From Betaproteobacteria bacterium RIFCSPLOWO2_02_FULL_63_19 (lineage in GTDB: Bacteria; Pseudomonadota; Gammaproteobacteria; Burkholderiales; SG8-39): a DNA stretch of 64,000 nucleotides. This document shows, in pieces, positions 9,277 to 32,197 of the stretch. The notes under the pieces were generated by a model. The model did not search any database. It worked only from the letters and a program-made list of their open reading frames with translations, and was not told the DNA's origin. The position numbers were made by a program, and so were the translations under genes. Location: assembly GCA_001770415.1 (NCBI GenBank), contig MEQX01000024.1, forward strand, positions 10,983-74,982, written 5' to 3'. How positions within the stretch are numbered: the first letter of the stretch is position 1; each line of letters starts with the position of its first letter.

Positions 9277-11298
9277 ATGACGGAACCGTCCGAGGACAGC
9301 AAACAGCTCGACCCCGGGAGCAGCGGCCGGCGTCCCGGTGTGCCGGTCGATCCCGCTGCCGATCCCACATCGGCGATGACCCGATCGGCACGGATCACGG
9401 TACGCGTCCTGTGTATCACGGTCGTGCTGCTGTCGATGGCCTGGGTGCTTGATTTGCCGCAGCGCGTGGGGCGGGCGTACTTTGCCGGCCAGTTGTTGAG
9501 CCTGGTCTATGGGGTCGGATTGGCCGCTGTGTACATGGCGGTCCCGCTCAGTCGCGGGCGGCGCCGAAACCCGGTGCCGTGGTATGACCTGCTCGTCGGC
9601 GCCGTCGCGCTGTGCACGCTTGCCTGGGTAGCGATCGAGTTCGAACGATTGCTCGACGCGGTGCCGTTGCGCACTCGCGAGACGATCGCGATCGGCGCCG
9701 TCATCCTGCTGCTCACGCTCGAGGCGCTGCGCCGCACCGCAGGGTACCTTTTGCTCGGCGTAGTACTGATCTTCGTGGTCTACGCGCTGGTCGGGCATCT
9801 GGTCCCCGGCGAACTCACGGCAACCTATGTGCGGCGCGACTATCTGCTCGTCTACCTCAGTTTCGATCCCAGCGCGCTGCTCGGCGCGCCGATTCGTATC
9901 GCGACGACGATCGTCATCGCGTTCATATTCCTCGGACAAATCCTTTTCAAGGCCGGTGGCGGTGAATTTTTCACCGATCTCGCCAAAGCGACGACCGGTC
10001 ACGCGCGCGGCGGTGCGGCGAAGATCGCCGTTGTCGCCTCTGCGCTGTTCGGCACCATCTCGGGCAGCCCGGCATCGAACGTCACCTCGACCGGAGTGAT
10101 CACCATCCCGCTGATGAAGCAATCAGGCTATCGCGGCGTCGACGCCGGGGCGATCGAAGCGGTTGCCTCGACCGGAGGGCAGTTCATGCCGCCGGTCATG
10201 GGTGCGGCCGCTTTTCTGATGGCCGAATTTCTCGAAATAGCCTATGCCGACGTGGTCATCGGCGCGATCGTGCCGTCGCTCCTTTACTACCTCGCGGTGT
10301 TCGTGCAGGTGGATCTGTTGGCCGCGCGCGATCGAATCGGTATGCTGGGCGGTACGCCTTTACGCGCGCTGAAGGTGTTGCGCGACGGCTGGCATTTCAT
10401 CATCCCATTCGCGCTGCTGATATGGCTGCTGTTCCACTACCGCACCGACCCGGAACTGGCAGCACTGTACGCGGCGGTCGTAACGCTGATCGGCGGTACT
10501 CTGCGTCGTTACGGATCGCAGCGGCTGACGCCGAGCGGGGTGCTGGCGAGCTTCTGGGAAACCGGGCTGATCGTCGTGGAACTGCTGCCTATTCTTGCAG
10601 CAGCGGGTCTGGTGATCGGCGTGCTCAACGTAACCGGTGGTGGATTCGCCTTGACCCTGGTGCTGGTCAAACTGGCGGGCGGATCGAGTTTCGCCCTGCT
10701 GCTGATCTCGGCCGCCGTGTGCATCGTTCTCGGCATGGGCATGCCGACCACGGCGGTGTACATACTGCTCGCGGCCCTGATCGCCCCTGCGCTCGTCGAG
10801 GCAGGCGTGCCGATCTTTTCAGCGCACCTGTTCATCCTCTATTACGGCATGCTGTCGATGATCACGCCGCCGATCGCGCTGGCCTGCTTCACGGCAGCGG
10901 TAATTTCACGCGAAGACCCGATGGCAATCGCGTTCGCGTCGATGCGTTTTGGCTGGGTCGCCTACGTGATTCCGTTCATGTTCGTACTTTCGCCGACGCT
11001 GCTGCTCAATGGCGCGCCGATGGCAATCGCATTCAACTGCGCCACCGCGGCCATTGGGGTGTACTTTTTCTCGGCGGCTCTGATAGGTTTTGTGCGAACG
11101 CCTCTGAACGTCCCGGAGCGCCTGCTGCTGAGCGTCGGAGGTATCGCATCGATCGTACCGACGACCGTGCTCACGTACGGAACACCGATCATTGCCGCGG
11201 GACTGCTGCTGGGGGGCGGAGTTCTTCTGCGCCAGCTGCGAAGGCAACGTGCACCTGTGCGCGACCCCGGATGGAGCAAAGAACCTGTTTCGAAATGA
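9277..11298 (+). CDS. TRAP transporter fused permease (4TM/12TM)
   Basis: RGGAAKIAVVAS, EAVASTGGQFMPPVMGAAAFLMAE, GMGMPTTAVYI, SMITPPIA. Confidence 0.92.
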   Translation: MTEPSEDSKQLDPGSSGRRPGVPVDPAADPTSAMTRSARITVRVLCITVVLLSMAWVLDLPQRVGRAYFAGQLLSLVYGVGLAAVYMAVPLSRGRRRNPVPWYDLLVGAVALCTLAWVAIEFERLLDAVPLRTRETIAIGAVILLLTLEALRRTAGYLLLGVVLIFVVYALVGHLVPGELTATYVRRDYLLVYLSFDPSALLGAPIRIATTIVIAFIFLGQILFKAGGGEFFTDLAKATTGHARGGAAKIAVVASALFGTISGSPASNVTSTGVITIPLMKQSGYRGVDAGAIEAVASTGGQFMPPVMGAAAFLMAEFLEIAYADVVIGAIVPSLLYYLAVFVQVDLLAARDRIGMLGGTPLRALKVLRDGWHFIIPFALLIWLLFHYRTDPELAALYAAVVTLIGGTLRRYGSQRLTPSGVLASFWETGLIVVELLPILAAAGLVIGVLNVTGGGFALTLVLVKLAGGSSFALLLISAAVCIVLGMGMPTTAVYILLAALIAPALVEAGVPIFSAHLFILYYGMLSMITPPIALACFTAAVISREDPMAIAFASMRFGWVAYVIPFMFVLSPTLLLNGAPMAIAFNCATAAIGVYFFSAALIGFVRTPLNVPERLLLSVGGIASIVPTTVLTYGTPIIAAGLLLGGGVLLRQLRRQRAPVRDPGWSKEPVSK

Positions 11299-11387: not shown

Positions 11388-12479
11388 ATGCCCGAATTCA
11401 GCGTCGTCGTCCCCGCCTACCGTGAGCGCGAAAATGTTCCGGCGCTGCTGCGCGCCCTCGACCGGGCGCTTTCCGGCCTGGACTGGGAGACCATCATCGT
11501 TGTAGACGACGCGCTCGACGGCACCGAAGAGTTGGTGCGCGCCGCGGCGCAGCAGGATCGACGCGTTCGTTGTCTGCATCGTATCGGCAGGCAGGGGCTC
11601 GCTTCGGCGTGCATCGAGGGCATGCTTGCCAGCTCGGCGCCGTACCTGGCGGTCATGGACGCGGACCTGCAGCACGACGAAACCCTGTTACCGAAGCTCC
11701 TTGATGCCGCGAGGAGCCACGGCGCAGACATCGTTGTAGCGAGTCGCTATATGCCGGGTGGCAGTACCGGCGAGCTGGCATCGGACCGGGTTTGGATAAG
11801 CCGGCTCGCGAGCACGCTCAGCCGGGTCCTTTGCCAAGGGCTGACCGATCCGATGAGCGGGTTCTTCGTAGTGCGCAGGACGTTTCTCGAGCGCGTGGTC
11901 CGCAGGCTCTATGGGCGCGGCTTCAAGATCCTGCTCGACATGATCGCGGCGGCGCGCGGAGAGGTGAGCCTCCAGGAGCTGCCGTACCGCATGCGCAGCC
12001 GCGAACGCGGAGAGAGCAAGCTCGGCGCGCGCGTGGTCGCAGAGTTCTTCATGCTGATCCTGTACCACGTGTTCGGCCGCATGCTGCCGGGCCGTTTCTT
12101 TCTGTTTGCCGCGGTTGGCACCACCGGTATCGGCGTCCACCTCGGCGTGCTGTGGCTGATGTTCGCCGGCTCGGGGAATTTTCTCGTCAGCCAGGCCGTG
12201 GCGACCTGGGCCGCAATGACCAGCAACTTCTTCCTCAACAACGCGGTCACCTATGGCGACCAGCGGCTGAGCGGGCGAAAGATCGTGCGCGGCTTGTTGA
12301 GCTTCTATGCGGCATGCGGAATCGGGGCGTTGATCAATCTCGCACTCGCCGACTGGCTCTTCATCAACTCGTTGCCGTACTGGATTGCCGGTTTGACCGG
12401 CGCCCTGGTCGCTGCGCTCTGGAACTTCTTCACGACGGCGTCGTTTACCTGGGGCGGATCGACCGCCGGCAAGCGCTGA
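11388..12479 (+). CDS. GT2 polyprenol-phosphate glycosyltransferase (DPM1/Ppm-like) fused to GtrA-like membrane domain
   Basis: SVVVPAYRERENV, VMDADLQHD, TDPMSGFF, SRERGESKL; C-terminal 4 TM with SNFFLNNAVTY and WNF. Confidence 0.88.
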   Translation: MPEFSVVVPAYRERENVPALLRALDRALSGLDWETIIVVDDALDGTEELVRAAAQQDRRVRCLHRIGRQGLASACIEGMLASSAPYLAVMDADLQHDETLLPKLLDAARSHGADIVVASRYMPGGSTGELASDRVWISRLASTLSRVLCQGLTDPMSGFFVVRRTFLERVVRRLYGRGFKILLDMIAAARGEVSLQELPYRMRSRERGESKLGARVVAEFFMLILYHVFGRMLPGRFFLFAAVGTTGIGVHLGVLWLMFAGSGNFLVSQAVATWAAMTSNFFLNNAVTYGDQRLSGRKIVRGLLSFYAACGIGALINLALADWLFINSLPYWIAGLTGALVAALWNFFTTASFTWGGSTAGKR

Positions 12480-14551
12480 TGCAGCGCATGCCTGGACGCC
12501 CGCGGCCGAGCGGGCGCGACTGGATGCAGGCCGGTCTGGTCTCGGCCGCGCTGTTCGTGCTGTACGCGATCACGGCACCGCGTACGGTGGCCGAGGAAGA
12601 CGACGGGCTATTCGTCTTGTCGAGCTATTTTCTTGGGATCGAGCATCCTCCCGGCTATCCCCTGTTTACCATCGTCGGGCACCTCTTCACCTACCTGCCG
12701 CTCGGCTCGGTCGCGTATCGTGTGCATCTGGCGAGCGCGATGTTCGGCGCGCTCACGTGCGCAGCCGCGTGGCTGTGTGCGCGCGCGCTATTACCCGGAC
12801 GTATGCCGGCGTACGTGGCGGCGCTCGGGCTGGGCTTGTCCCCGGTGTTCTGGTCGCAGGCGATCATCGCGGAGGTCTATACACTCAACACATTCTTCTT
12901 CCTGTCGCTCGTCTTCCTCGGACTGCAGGCCTGTCCGCCTGCGGGAGGGGATCCAGGCGAGCCGCGCTCCGCACGCTTGCTTGCGTGGATTGCGCTGGTT
13001 TTCGGCCTGAGCCTCAGCAACCACTATCCGCTGATGCTGCTGGTGGCGCCTGCGTTTGTCTTGCTGTTATGGCCGCTGCGGGCCGAATTGCTCAAGCGCC
13101 TTTGGCTCCTTGTGTTGCTTGTTGTGCTCGGTCTTTTGCCGTATGTCTGGCTGGTGTACCGGTCGTGGGCAGCGCTGCCGATCAGCTTCTACGGGCCAAT
13201 GGAAACCCTGCACGAGATCTGGTATTTCATTAGCCGCTCCGGTTATGTCCATGTTGACCAGTCGGCGACGGCGAACTGGCTTGATCGGATCAAGTTCTTC
13301 CAGTTTCAGGCAGGGGAATTAATGGTTCAGTTCGCGGTCATCGGCACCGCTGCTGCCGCCGCCGGATTCGTCGTTCAATGGCGCGTTTGGGGACGCAGGG
13401 TTGCGGCGTTCTTCACGGCGGCATTCCTGCTGTCATCGATCGTCCTGTTGCTGCTTCTGGGGTTCGACTACGACTCGATCCACAAGAACGTCTACCAAGT
13501 CTATCCGTTGCCCGCGTACGCGGTCGCCGCACTATGGATGGGGCTGGGTCTTGCGTGGTTCGCCGGCCGGTATGCGCTGAATCGCCATCGTACCGTCGCC
13601 ACCGGCGTCTTTGTGATCGCGATCGTAGCCGGCGTCGGCGCACGGTACAACATGTTCGACGATCACGACTGGATTGCTCGCTACGCCAAGGCCGTACTGA
13701 AAACCCTCCCACGGAACGCCGTGGTGTTTGGGCGAGGCGACCCGGATCTGGTGCCGATGGCGTACTTCCACATGATCGAAACCGTCCGTCCGGACATAAG
13801 CCTTTACCAGCCCCGGGGGCTCGTGCTGGGCAACCGCCTGTTCCATCCCGAGAGAACGGACGATGAGACCGCGAGCCGGATCCTGAAACGCATGGTCGCC
13901 GAACAGAAGGTTCCGGTTGTCGCAACACTGGACGCATACACGTTTGGTGCGCAACGCGACCGGTGGCTGTATACCGAGTTCGACCGCTCGTCGAGTGACG
14001 CCAAGAAGGTGACCGTCGACATCCCGGAGGAAGCGGTTCGGTTTTTCGAAACGTCGGTAATGAATGCAAAATCCTCGAACGCGTGGGTCGCCTTTGTTCA
14101 GGGCCAACTCAGGCACCGTTATGCCGTGCTGCTCGCACGCTCGCTTTCGCACCGCGCATCGCCCGATGAGCGCACCCGCCGCCACCTGAAGGCTCTCGAA
14201 AAGGACTTCTACGGCGCGCTCGGAATCGCCGAGGGATTGATGCTGAACAGCGAGGGATACTCGGTGGGCGCCGTCACGCTCGCGCTAGAGACAGCAAGGG
14301 ATCGCATGCCCTCCGATGTTCCGAAAGAATTTCTGGCGCGCTACTTCTATCTGGGAGGTGCTATGCGCGCAGGTCGTGGCGATCGTTCCGGCGCCGTGGG
14401 CAACCTGGAGACGGCGCTGTCAATTTGGCACTCGCCCAAGAATCCGGCCATCGCGACGCTCGAAACGCTGCTTCGCGAAGCGGGTGACTCGGCCGCGCTG
14501 CAACGCCTACAGGACCGCGTGAAGACGTTCAAGCGCTCGCTGCGGCGGTAG
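12479..14551 (+). CDS. DUF2723 (TMEM260-like, GT-C) membrane glycosyltransferase with C-terminal helical/TPR-like domain
   Basis: ATG at 12479 overlaps upstream TGA; signature LGIEHPPGYPL..YRVHLASA, WSQAIIAEVYTLN, LSNH; the longer 919-aa ORF call is a run-on. Confidence 0.85.
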   Translation: MQRMPGRPRPSGRDWMQAGLVSAALFVLYAITAPRTVAEEDDGLFVLSSYFLGIEHPPGYPLFTIVGHLFTYLPLGSVAYRVHLASAMFGALTCAAAWLCARALLPGRMPAYVAALGLGLSPVFWSQAIIAEVYTLNTFFFLSLVFLGLQACPPAGGDPGEPRSARLLAWIALVFGLSLSNHYPLMLLVAPAFVLLLWPLRAELLKRLWLLVLLVVLGLLPYVWLVYRSWAALPISFYGPMETLHEIWYFISRSGYVHVDQSATANWLDRIKFFQFQAGELMVQFAVIGTAAAAAGFVVQWRVWGRRVAAFFTAAFLLSSIVLLLLLGFDYDSIHKNVYQVYPLPAYAVAALWMGLGLAWFAGRYALNRHRTVATGVFVIAIVAGVGARYNMFDDHDWIARYAKAVLKTLPRNAVVFGRGDPDLVPMAYFHMIETVRPDISLYQPRGLVLGNRLFHPERTDDETASRILKRMVAEQKVPVVATLDAYTFGAQRDRWLYTEFDRSSSDAKKVTVDIPEEAVRFFETSVMNAKSSNAWVAFVQGQLRHRYAVLLARSLSHRASPDERTRRHLKALEKDFYGALGIAEGLMLNSEGYSVGAVTLALETARDRMPSDVPKEFLARYFYLGGAMRAGRGDRSGAVGNLETALSIWHSPKNPAIATLETLLREAGDSAALQRLQDRVKTFKRSLRR

Positions 14552-14572: not shown

Positions 14573-14600
14573 AGGCCGTGCTGGAATCGAACCAGCGGCC
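14573..14600 (-). repeat. Degenerate direct repeat of tRNA-Lys 3' half (candidate att relic); folds as a hairpin
   Basis: 24/28 identity to 32126-32153 in the same orientation; minus strand GCTGG-TTCGATT-CCAGC-ACGGCCT vs tRNA GCAGG-TTCGACT-CCTGC-ACGGCCT. Confidence 0.7.
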
Positions 14601-18469: not shown

Positions 18470-19195
18470 ATGAAAAGGTCCGTTTCACTCCTCCTTCGGG
18501 CAGCATTTGTTTTCTCCTGCGTCGCCTTGCTGGCCTTTGCCGCCTGGCAGGCCAGCCTGCGCGGGCGCGCCGACCTGACGGCGCAGGGGCCGACTGCGCA
18601 GGTGGAGCGGTGGGCCCGAGGCGGCCGGATCGACTCGCTCCAACGCTGGAGACGCGCGGTGGACGGCCTGCGCGCGGCTCAGGCGCTGGTGCCGGGCGAA
18701 GCCGCGGTCTATGCATCGATGGCGCGCGCGTACTCGCTGGCGGCGATCTCCGCGCCAACGCCGTCAGCCGCAAGCGTGTACCGCGAGTTTTCGCTGCTGC
18801 ATTGGCGCCTCGTCACCATGCTTCGCCCGACCTGGCCGTACGGCTGGTCGGGGATTGCGACCCATACGTTCAACCTGGGTTACGCAGACGTCATGGGTGC
18901 GCTTTCGCGCGCGATGCGCTACGGTCCGTGGGAACCGGGCGTTCAGCTTTTTGCCTCACGCGTCGGGTTGTTACGCTGGGAGCTGCTCGACTCGACGCAG
19001 CGCGAGGAAGTGCGGCAGAACTGGCGCCGCACCGCGCAGCGCCAGGGTGAAGCGCTGGCGCGGATGGCCGTCGAACTGAAGCGCGAGCCGATACTGTGCG
19101 CCGAGGGCCTGCCTGGTATGCAGAAGCGGCTCCAATGCGACAAGCGCCGAAACGCGGCGCCGCGCAAACGCGCTGGAAACCGGATGACGCGATGA
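18470..19195 (+). CDS. VpsP-like polysaccharide biosynthesis / TPR-like protein
   Basis: N-terminal TM; RPTWPYGW...ALSRAMRYGPWEPGV pattern; coupled (ATGA) to an O-antigen ligase gene. Confidence 0.6.
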   Translation: MKRSVSLLLRAAFVFSCVALLAFAAWQASLRGRADLTAQGPTAQVERWARGGRIDSLQRWRRAVDGLRAAQALVPGEAAVYASMARAYSLAAISAPTPSAASVYREFSLLHWRLVTMLRPTWPYGWSGIATHTFNLGYADVMGALSRAMRYGPWEPGVQLFASRVGLLRWELLDSTQREEVRQNWRRTAQRQGEALARMAVELKREPILCAEGLPGMQKRLQCDKRRNAAPRKRAGNRMTR

Positions 19196-20691
19196 GGGCA
19201 GCGCACGAGCGCCGTAGCGCCGACGCCTGGGTGTTCGGCCTGTTCCTCGCGCTGCTCTTCTGGGCGCCGTTGCCGCTGGGGAGCGCGCGGCCCTGGGCCT
19301 GGACGATCCTCGAGCTCGGGATCTATTTCCTCGCCGCGTGCTGGCTCGCGCTGTGGGCGTTCGGCCGCGCGCGCGTTCGCGCGCCCTGCCGAGAGGCCTG
19401 GCCGGTGCTGACGTTGTTCGCGATATGGCTCGCGATCGTCGGTGTGCAGCTGCTACCACTGCCGCGCGAGATGGCGGAAATCATCTCGCCCGAATCGCTG
19501 CGCGTGTGGCTGGATGCGGGGCGCTTCGCCGAACGCGGCTATCCGGTGTCCACCGAGCCTGAGGCGACGACGGTGTTTCTGTTGAAGAGCCTCGCCTACG
19601 CGCTCGCGTTCTTTCTGACGCTGGTGCTCGCCGACCGGCGCGAACGGCTGAAGGCGCTCGCTTTCACGCTCGTCGCCTCGGGACTGCTGCAGGCGCTGTA
19701 CGCGAGCTTCGGGCATCTGCTGCAGCTGCAATACGAATTCGCCTTCACGCCGTTGAACCACGGCGATCGCGCGATCGGCACCTTCCGCAACCCGGACCAC
19801 CTGGCGGGGTACCTGGAACTCGCGCTCTCGGTGGGGATCGGCATGATGATCGGCACGCTGCGCGAACGCGCGCCGCGCACCTGGCGGCAGCGCTTGCGCG
19901 ACTGGGTGGGCTGGATGATCAGTCCGAGGATACTGCTGCGCCTCGTGCTCGTGGTGATGGTGATCGCGCTGGTGATGACGCGCTCGCGCGGCGGCAACGG
20001 GGCGTTCTTCGCCAGCATGCTCGTCGCCGGGGCGCTCGGCCTCGCGCTTTCGCGCCACGCGACGCGCTCGGTGGTGATTCTGATCGCGAGCCTGGTGGTG
20101 ATCGACGTATTCATCGTCGGCGCGTGGTTCGGCGTCGACAAGGTGATGCACCGCCTCGAACAGACCTCGCTCACGCGCGACGCCAGGGCGGTAGCGGGCA
20201 CCAGCGAGCAGTCGCTCGAGGAGCGTGGCGACCCGGCGCTATTCGCGCTGAACATGGCACGCGACTACCCGTGGCTGGGCAGCGGCGGCGGCACGTTCGC
20301 CAGCACGTTCATGAAGTACCGCACCGAGGAACTCGCGGGCGACTTCTACGTCAACGCCGCGCACAACGACTACGCGCAGTTCCTCGTGGAGACGGGCGTC
20401 ATCGGCCTCGCATTGATGGGCCTCGTTGTGCTGCTCTGTTTCGTCACCGCGCTGAAGGCACAGTACCAGCGCACCGACCCGCTCGCGCGCGGCGTCGCGT
20501 TCGGCGCCACGATGGGCATCGTCTCGCTGATGATCCACAGTTGGGTGGACTTCAACCTGCAGACCCCGTCGAACGCGCTCACTTTCGTCGTGGTACTGGC
20601 GATGGCGTGGCCGGCGGCGTACGTCGGGCGGCAGCGGCACGCGAGCGAGAGCGAGGAAGACCGCGCGGCAGCGGGAACGGCGCCAGGGTAA
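19192..20691 (+). CDS. O-antigen ligase / Wzy_C-family polymerase-like membrane protein
   Basis: GTFRNPDHLAGYL, TRSRGG, PWLGSGGGTF, AHNDYAQFLVETGVIG, HSWVDFNLQTPSN. Confidence 0.85.
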   Translation: MRAAHERRSADAWVFGLFLALLFWAPLPLGSARPWAWTILELGIYFLAACWLALWAFGRARVRAPCREAWPVLTLFAIWLAIVGVQLLPLPREMAEIISPESLRVWLDAGRFAERGYPVSTEPEATTVFLLKSLAYALAFFLTLVLADRRERLKALAFTLVASGLLQALYASFGHLLQLQYEFAFTPLNHGDRAIGTFRNPDHLAGYLELALSVGIGMMIGTLRERAPRTWRQRLRDWVGWMISPRILLRLVLVVMVIALVMTRSRGGNGAFFASMLVAGALGLALSRHATRSVVILIASLVVIDVFIVGAWFGVDKVMHRLEQTSLTRDARAVAGTSEQSLEERGDPALFALNMARDYPWLGSGGGTFASTFMKYRTEELAGDFYVNAAHNDYAQFLVETGVIGLALMGLVVLLCFVTALKAQYQRTDPLARGVAFGATMGIVSLMIHSWVDFNLQTPSNALTFVVVLAMAWPAAYVGRQRHASESEEDRAAAGTAPG

Positions 20692-32121: not shown

Positions 32122-32197
32122 TGGTAGGCCGTGCAGGAGTCGAACCTGCGACCAACGGATTAAAAGTCCGCTGCTCTACCAACTGAGCTAACGACCC
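32122..32197 (-). tRNA. tRNA-Lys(UUU)
   Basis: GGGTCGTTAGCTCAGTTGGTAGAGCAGCGGACTTTTAATCCGTTGGTCGCAGGTTCGACTCCTGCACGGCCTACCA; 76 nt, encoded CCA; follows cpoB as in other proteobacteria. Confidence 0.97.

Follow-up and report, generated by a model that had tools for sequence, protein, structure and literature searches.

Our analyses show that two overlapping genes in a stretch of 64,000 nucleotides (the window) from Betaproteobacteria bacterium RIFCSPLOWO2_02_FULL_63_19, an uncultured groundwater betaproteobacterium whose genome is 92% complete, encode a polyprenyl-phosphate-sugar synthase with a fused GtrA-like membrane domain and a GT-C glycosyltransferase of the TMEM260 family. We hold the identities of both components with high confidence. 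The feature is real, was correctly described in a preliminary description made from the DNA letters, and is a probable pilin O-mannosylation module in an unusual, stripped-down form that is not linked to a pilin gene. In the best explanation, to which we give about an even chance, the two genes form a minimal module that adds mannose, in trans, to the major type IV pilin PilA; we infer the sugar, the flipping step and the acceptor. The genes and their junction are as follows.

11388..12479, plus strand: gene 1 (P0001), 363 amino acids (aa), with its TGA stop codon at 12477-12479
12479..14551, plus strand: gene 2 (P0002), 690 aa, with its ATG start codon at 12479-12481
12477..12481, plus strand: TGATG stop/start overlap, read directly, which couples gene 1 and gene 2

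The preliminary description had noted that the pair is translationally coupled, and this is what we find: the two reading frames share one base within TGATG, and the same junction recurs in the orthologous loci L035, L054, L127 and L144, for which the alignments start at residue 1. The ATG start codon of gene 2 is supported because its close homologues likewise begin with "MQ". The genome carries a single copy of each gene. A promoter scan found no promoter-like sites around the pair, and terminator-like matches, about 1.6 standard deviations above the shuffle mean, included none at the gene ends.

Gene 2 is a member of the TMEM260 family (PF11028, CAZy GT117). Its match to the Pfam family TMEM260-like PF11028, formerly DUF2723, reaches 101.3 bits for a cut-off of 24.2 (E 6.9e-29), accompanied by a weak match to PMT_2, and NCBIfam assigns it to no family. 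Human TMEM260 is its sole sequence match in the PDB (9rql, E 1.6e-30 with HMMER, residues 21-444 against 32-464), with no sequence-level similarity to TMEM260 beyond residue 444 of gene 2. An AlphaFold model built on 74 diverse homologues (pLDDT 95.5, pTM 0.94) shows, according to DSSP, about 11 membrane helices followed by an alpha/beta segment (415-515) and by eight helices (517-689). All 32 Foldseek matches of this model at E <= 0.001 are GT-C enzymes, with AglB, ArnT, PglB, Pmt4, STT3 and ALG9 on top; the structure of TMEM260 itself was absent from these matches. The GT-C fold on which the preliminary description had staked its reading is therefore present in a confident model, and the DUF2723 assignment, the HPPGYPL motif, the acidic EEDD loop and the helical C-terminal domain that it had listed are all found. 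The positions that matter most are the following.

12593..12604, plus strand: EEDD loop (gene 2 residues 39-42) in the first periplasmic loop, D41 being the counterpart of TMEM260 D52 in the HMMER alignment
12644..12664, plus strand: HPPGYPL motif (gene 2 residues 56-62), H56 being the counterpart of TMEM260 H67 in the HMMER alignment
13235..13246, plus strand: R253-S-G-Y256, probable counterpart of TMEM260 R264-x-x-Y267, with the same R-x-x-Y spacing
13739..13741, plus strand: D421 in GRGD, counterpart of TMEM260 D441 (RGD) by alignment
13706..14548, plus strand: periplasmic C-terminal region (gene 2 residues 410-690), an alpha/beta subdomain and an eight-helix TPR-like repeat according to DSSP on the model, presumed to bind the acceptor

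Human TMEM260 (PF11028; GT117; PDB 9rql, 9rqm and 9rqn) is a protein O-mannosyltransferase of the endoplasmic reticulum that modifies IPT domains (PMC10214176; bioRxiv 10.64898/2026.03.17.711096). Its D52A mutant is inactive (PMC10214176), and a structural preprint of 2026 reports that H67, R264A, Y267A and D441A mutants are inactive as well, that H67 binds the donor sugar, that R264 and Y267 bind phosphate and mannose, that the luminal part consists of Rossmann-like and TPR domains, and that D441, in the Rossmann-like domain, is the proposed catalytic base (bioRxiv 10.64898/2026.03.17.711096). The acidic loop had been singled out beforehand for comparison with the catalytic Asp of TMEM260, and D41 does align with D52. 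In the alignment of the same 74 homologues, D41, H56, P57, G59 and P61 are invariant, and R253, Y256 and D421 are at least 90% conserved. As HMMER places R253 and Y256 two residues off R264 and Y267 despite the equal spacing, we consider their correspondence as probable only. Gene 2 shares with TMEM260 the Pfam family, the succession of a GT-C core, an alpha/beta subdomain and a TPR-like luminal or periplasmic domain, the counterparts of D52, H67 and D441, probably those of R264 and Y267, and presumably the use of a polyprenyl-phosphate-monosaccharide donor. By contrast, it is bacterial, is paired with its own donor synthase, has a C-terminal domain without detectable sequence similarity to the human one, and its likely acceptor is a pilin instead of an IPT domain.

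Gene 1 combines two Pfam domains, Glycos_transf_2 (PF00535, residues 5-169, E 5.8e-31) and GtrA_DPMS_TM (PF04138, residues 240-355, E 5.1e-17); in NCBIfam it has only GT2 matches, far below threshold. Its top match by far among solved structures is the type-III dolichyl-phosphate-mannose synthase (DPMS) of Pyrococcus furiosus (PfDPMS, 5mlz, E 9.2e-49), over residues 4-355 and hence both domains, followed by ArnC (E 1e-10). The polyprenol-phosphate-sugar synthase with a fused GtrA-like domain that the preliminary description had recognised is thereby confirmed. Two of its features are central here.

11658..11675, plus strand: DADLQH motif (gene 1 residues 91-96), identical to 89-DADLQH-94 of PfDPMS
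12105..12452, plus strand: GtrA/DPMS-type four-helix transmembrane domain (gene 1 residues 240-355, PF04138), a candidate flippase

DADLQH is the metal-, diphosphate- and mannosyl-binding signature of DPMS, and the PfDPMS residues that contact GDP-mannose, metal or Dol-P are E12, D39, L69, D89, D91, Q93, H94, R117, R131, S135, F177, K178, R202 and K208 (PMC5526996). Gene 1 keeps all 14 of them, as E13, D40, L71, D91, D93, Q95, H96, R120, R134, S138, F179, K180, R205 and K211; the site for the phosphate of Dol-P (R117/R131/S135) is thus retained as R120/R134/S138. Among 38 homologues of gene 1 that adjoin a TMEM260-like GT-C gene (L032-L111, 27-81% identity), D91, D93 and H96 are invariant and all 14 donor and lipid-phosphate positions invariant or nearly so, the exceptions being Q95S in six proteins, F179Y in six, and single substitutions at L71 and K180. 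Because of the full-length match to 5mlz and the kept active-site residues, we read gene 1 as probably a bacterial type-III-like polyprenyl-phosphate-mannose synthase, its preference for mannose being suggested by the same residues. It resembles PfDPMS over its full length, including the four-helix membrane domain, and differs in being bacterial and mesophilic, in a lipid acceptor that is presumably undecaprenyl phosphate instead of dolichyl phosphate, and in part of the membrane pocket.

That pocket bears on flipping. A 2026 paper described Dol-P-Man bound head-down in the membrane domain of PfDPMS and proposed that the enzyme possibly flips its own product; according to the same work, the pocket residue R341 is Asn outside the Thermococcales and type III DPMS is confined to archaea (PMC12992685). 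In gene 1, N277 and R341 of the pocket have N280 and N346 as counterparts, both invariant or nearly so among the homologues, and N248 and the gate residue F338 are replaced by H251 and A343. By analogy with this crystallographic suggestion for the archaeal enzyme (PMC12992685), gene 1 possibly flips its own product through the GtrA-like domain. As a separate observation, bacterial gene 1 and its 38 homologues have the whole PfDPMS active site and a fused four-helix domain, which, in a comparison by named active-site residues and domain layout, appears to conflict with the archaea-only statement (PMC12992685).

The probable working of the pair can be outlined from these features. Gene 1 would move mannose from GDP-mannose to undecaprenyl phosphate at the cytoplasmic face of the membrane, as its conserved residues suggest, and the lipid-linked mannose would then cross the membrane, possibly via gene 1's own GtrA-like four-helix domain. 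Judging from its human homologue TMEM260, gene 2 would bind this donor with D41, H56 and R253/Y256, hold an extended acceptor peptide in its Rossmann-like and TPR-like periplasmic domains, and activate a Ser/Thr hydroxyl through D421. The acceptor would most likely be the major type IV pilin PilA, to judge from gene neighbourhoods, with the pair acting in trans in this genome. A protein acceptor is favoured by the family's catalytic base, which is directed at peptides, by the TPR-like domain and by the pilus genes found near related pairs. A likely benefit, by analogy with TfpO and TfpW of P. aeruginosa, would be the masking of pili from pilus-specific phages or an altered pilus surface.

The two genes travel together far beyond this genome. 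The closest relatives of gene 2 are P0004 (80% identity) and P0005 (74%), and bacterial relatives are numerous in a family search that returned at least 1,685 matches. Of 25 genome loci at 45-80% identity, 22 have a full-length homologue of gene 1 as the next gene upstream on the same strand, and 14 more distant loci (26-42%) also have one adjoining the GT-C gene, sometimes downstream. It is likewise present in 65 of 80 soil metagenome loci, many of the remaining contigs being cut short.

The identity of the probable acceptor comes from the neighbours of these pairs. We clustered about 1,000 open reading frames (ORFs) from the surroundings of 87 related loci and assigned Pfam families to the clusters that recurred. 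Recurrent neighbours are major pilins (Pfam Pilin and N_methyl), PilS-like kinases, PilR-like sigma-54 regulators, PilB/T-type ATPases, PilC and the prepilin peptidase PilD, and such pilus genes occur beside homologues from Burkholderiales, several Gammaproteobacteria, Magnetococcales, Chromatiales and candidate phyla radiation (CPR)-like loci. Pilin-linked loci include those of Magnetococcales (L023, L082), Gammaproteobacteria (L059, L068-L070, L105), Thiohalocapsa (L086) and Chromatiales (L094), and in three loci (L100, L110 and L111) the GT-C gene stands within the pilus operon, between the pilin gene and pilD. In soil Burkholderiales, the typical order is a GAF-HD gene, pilA in one or two copies, a gene for a YfhO-like protein of about 1,000 aa or a gene of about 400 aa, the GT2-GtrA synthase, one or two copies of the TMEM260-like GT-C, and an unnamed polytopic protein of about 637 aa; in orthologous loci, pilA lies 1-3 kb upstream of the pair with other genes between. 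In a FastTree phylogeny of 132 proteins, with pilins counted only for rows with adequate flanks, gene 2 of the window nests in a clade of 105 rows, 49 of which are pilin-linked and two not (49/51 with adequate flanks), one of the two still having a partial pilin match. Under the same detection rule, the stretches within 9 kb of a prepilin-like ORF make up only 4% of this genome. Because the orthologous pair of Burkholderiales is almost always found downstream of pilA (in those 49 of 51 loci), it likely glycosylates pili. The bacterial protein O-glycosylation pathway that the preliminary description had proposed gains from these neighbourhoods both support and a candidate acceptor, the type IV pilin; this support is indirect, as no pilin gene adjoins the pair here.

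The unnamed protein of about 637 aa (L033:10061-11974, plus strand, and about 57 further loci among L124-L203) is encoded directly 3' of the TMEM260-like gene in most soil Burkholderiales loci. It has at least nine membrane segments and a soluble tail of about 200 aa, finds no Pfam match even at E <= 1, and may be a further GT-C-like transferase.

The closest analogue for the probable working of the module, compared by description and published motif, appears to be the TfpW system. TfpW of P. aeruginosa group IV is a GT-C arabinofuranosyltransferase of about 646 aa that adjoins pilA and is accompanied by the GtrA-like protein PsPA7_6247 (bioRxiv 10.1101/2020.04.19.049825). Each GT-C protein is polytopic, measures about 650-690 aa, spans the membrane with about 11 helices, and carries a DDx motif in periplasmic loop 1 (E40-D41-D42-G43 in gene 2) as well as a C-terminal TPR domain (the helical repeats 517-689 in gene 2). 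Both systems have a genetic tie to pilA (in relatives, in our case), a polyprenyl-phosphate-monosaccharide donor (presumed in our case) and a GtrA-like component. They differ in several respects: the TfpW family motif Y-x6-P-F-x7-P was found in none of the 97 gene 2 homologues examined (motif as in bioRxiv 10.1101/2020.04.19.049825); TfpW directly follows pilA, whereas the pair of the window has no pilin gene on its contig and its orthologues keep 1-3 kb between; and the donor of TfpW comes from the DprE1/DprE2 D-Araf pathway, that of gene 2 from a DPMS-like GT2 enzyme. Some relatives encode a second kind of polytopic protein (610-750 aa) with an F-[VIL]-[WL]-D-D loop motif (L059:10573-12447 and L086:5881-7851, both on the plus strand, and three copies in L074). 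It directly follows pilA in L059 and L086, as TfpW does in Pseudomonas, and the L059 protein has a very weak TPR match (E 0.23). This protein presumably resembles TMTC-type GT-C enzymes.

A module that decorates a glycan or lipid (O-antigen, lipopolysaccharide (LPS) core, lipid A or exopolysaccharide (EPS)), as do GtrA/GtrB/GtrC and ArnC/ArnT, would follow the same three-part logic, in which a GT2 enzyme makes a polyprenyl-phosphate-sugar, a GtrA-like part is present and the transfer of the sugar, outside the cytoplasm, falls to a GT-C enzyme; all three parts are found here in two coupled genes. Moreover, ArnT is among the best fold matches of gene 2, and the pair is followed, at a distance of 4.5 kb, by a Wzy_C (O-antigen-ligase-like) gene (19096-20691). 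This gene, though, sits inside a separately acquired island, and the conserved neighbours of the pair are pilus genes, not LPS or EPS genes. The Gtr and Arn systems modify O-antigen or lipid A and, unlike in them, the GtrA-like part is here fused to the synthase, and gene 2 comes from a protein-specific family that clusters with pilus genes in relatives and retains both the counterpart of D441, the base for peptide Ser/Thr in TMEM260, and the TPR-like 'fingers'. We consider glycan or lipid decoration quite unlikely.

The module might also be active on other periplasmic or envelope proteins, instead of or besides PilA, such as minor pilins, type II secretion system (T2SS) pseudopilins or a wider secreted set as in the actinobacterial Ppm1/Pmt system. 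In Mycobacterium and Streptomyces, the polyprenyl-phosphate-mannose synthase of that system supplies a GT-C protein O-mannosyltransferase acting on exported proteins. Its GT-C enzyme belongs to the family PMT (GT39), to which P0002 has only a weak match (PMT_2), and its genes, from Gram-positive actinobacteria, are neither a coupled pair nor pilus-linked. A broader acceptor range is in agreement with the unlinked state of the pair in the window and in L051, L052, L056 and L064, with the approximately 15 further prepilin-like ORFs of this genome, with the PF11028-positive genomes that have no PF00114 pilins (see below), and with the tandem GT-C paralogues of some loci. One synthase accompanies arrays of 2-5 GT-C paralogues in L059, L067, L068, L106 and L108. 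The broader range agrees less well with the near-constant presence of a major pilin gene beside the orthologous clade (49/51) and with the lack of any other conserved acceptor-like neighbour among the approximately 1,000 clustered ORFs. We therefore regard it as unlikely, with a low but appreciable probability. The arrays without a pilin gene in their flanks comprise 3-5 TMEM260-like paralogues in tandem (L067:8001-16291, L108:8001-17422 and L106:8001-12341) and belong, respectively, to a gammaproteobacterial chromosome, an Armatimonadota genome and an Elusimicrobia genome, all three metagenome-assembled; these arrays suggest diversified acceptor specificities.

Against the proposed mannosylation of PilA weigh several observations, which we gather here. 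No prepilin-like ORF was found on the 138-kb contig of the window, the pair being therefore not pilin-linked in this genome, and the YfhO-like and approximately 637-aa partners of the orthologous loci were not found in the 92% of the genome that is available. The pilA genes of the genome are followed by a 631-aa polytopic protein, a Wzx-type flippase and sugar-nucleotide genes, which could glycosylate the pilin without the pair. Sugar specificity cannot be read from the sequence with certainty. We found no paper on the function of any bacterial member of the TMEM260 family (DUF2723/GT117), in line with the earlier statement that bacterial DUF2723 proteins are largely uncharacterised. Finally, a phyletic test gave a mixed result: among 401 Pseudomonadota genomes, 12 were PF11028-positive, and seven of these, with more distant members of the family and six of them small (1.7-2.0 Mb), have no PF00114 pilins. 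In the same test, all five genomes with P0002-like matches have PF00114 pilins, against a background of 34%, three of the five being from one genus. Stand-alone pairs without pilin linkage also occur in other lineages (L051, L052, L056 and L064), and, in favour of the proposal, five other genomes with unlinked pairs carry PF00114 pilins elsewhere.

The genome studied here does likewise. Two tandem, near-identical pilA genes, encoding proteins of 156 aa with an FTLIELM N-terminus, lie on another contig (C93, that is, L114:203-11290, minus strand, with one pilA at L114:9888-10355), and these PilA proteins share 54-64% identity with the pilins encoded next to orthologous pairs. The 631-aa protein encoded after pilA has no Pfam match and no homologue among the approximately 1,000 neighbourhood ORFs; further genes on this contig specify a methyltransferase, a CMP-sugar cytidylyltransferase, oxidoreductases and an acetyltransferase. 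Given these sugar genes downstream of pilA, the pilin may be glycosylated by a second, unrelated route. The divergent gene at L114:11659-13920 encodes a GT41/TPR protein. A conserved Gly turn that leads into a strand bearing Thr/Ser is common to the linked pilins and the PilA of this genome (T-D-x-x-G-x-V-T-A-T-V-Q, with G-A-G-A-I-T-V-T in this PilA). No full match to the sequon proposed for the human enzyme, P-x5-P-x3-G-P-x2-[GA]-G-G-x2-[TS], was seen by eye in the aligned PilA sequences, and the Gly-turn strand is only loosely like the [GA]-G-G-x-x-[TS] end of this sequon, a likeness seen by eye and with no statistical support that we do not count as evidence.

The unlinked position of the pair can be followed in its flanks, where we identified the following features.

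9277-11298: TRAP-type transporter gene, 90 bp upstream of gene 1
14573..14597, minus strand: tRNA-Lys-like 3' fragment, separated from the stop codon of gene 2 by 22 bp; the window has just two copies of the repeat, where chance would give 0
32122-32197: intact tRNA-Lys, from tRNA gene detection

An island of about 17.5 kb spans the sequence from the tRNA-Lys-like fragment to the intact tRNA-Lys, and before its integration the pair must have abutted the tRNA gene. No third tRNA-Lys-like repeat was found upstream of gene 1, which implies that the pair itself is not bounded by attachment-site repeats. The fragment (14573-14597) and the corresponding part of the intact gene (32126-32150) differ by compensatory changes in the T stem (GCTGG...CCAGC vs GCAGG...CCTGC); from its sequence, the scar resembles the 3' end of another functional tRNA allele, such as one brought by an incoming element, rather than the product of random decay. 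When we compared same-genus genomes by synteny through the TRAP gene, the best matches were paralogues about 50% identical, hence no orthologous empty site was identified.

A pair displaced from pilA, beside an integration hotspot and without the YfhO-like and approximately 637-aa partners of its orthologues might be a stranded, functionless remnant of a pilin glycosylation locus whose partners were lost on relocation. This seems to us highly improbable, since both reading frames are intact and full length with respect to their orthologues, no catalytic residue has been lost, the genes keep their start/stop coupling, a copy with 99% identity is on public record (Betaproteobacteria bacterium RIFCSPLOWO2_12_FULL_63_13), and similar stand-alone pairs are found in other lineages (L051, L052 and L064). 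The GC content of the pair (about 64%) does not differ from that of the flanking DNA either.

Returning to PilA mannosylation by the pair, its most complete version unites a self-flipping bacterial type-III-like synthase and a TMEM260-family GT-C enzyme in a portable system of two genes for the O-mannosylation, in trans, of the major type IV pilin, and we give this version a somewhat less than even chance. The preliminary description had called the system self-contained. This stands insofar as the synthase, the GtrA-like domain and the GT-C enzyme are present in two genes; it goes too far insofar as orthologous loci usually add the YfhO-like and approximately 637-aa proteins, not found here, and as flipping has only been suggested for the archaeal enzyme.

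TMEM260 was recognised as a human O-mannosyltransferase in 2023. A pilin role for its family is not yet described, and the pilin link provides a testable lead to a bacterial substrate. If the proposed function is true, the bacterial branch of the TMEM260 family would gain its first substrate in PilA, and the pair would add a third class of pilin glycosylation, as yet undescribed, to the PglL/TfpO and TfpW types. The two-gene version of the window is the smallest form of the system and offers an easy construct for reconstitution. Gene 1, a bacterial protein closely matching the archaeal type-III synthase, bears on the claim that only hyperthermophilic archaea have type III. Glycosylation of pilin blocks pilus-specific phages in Pseudomonas, and the module would, if the proposed function is true, be another route to pilin glycosylation and phage blocking.

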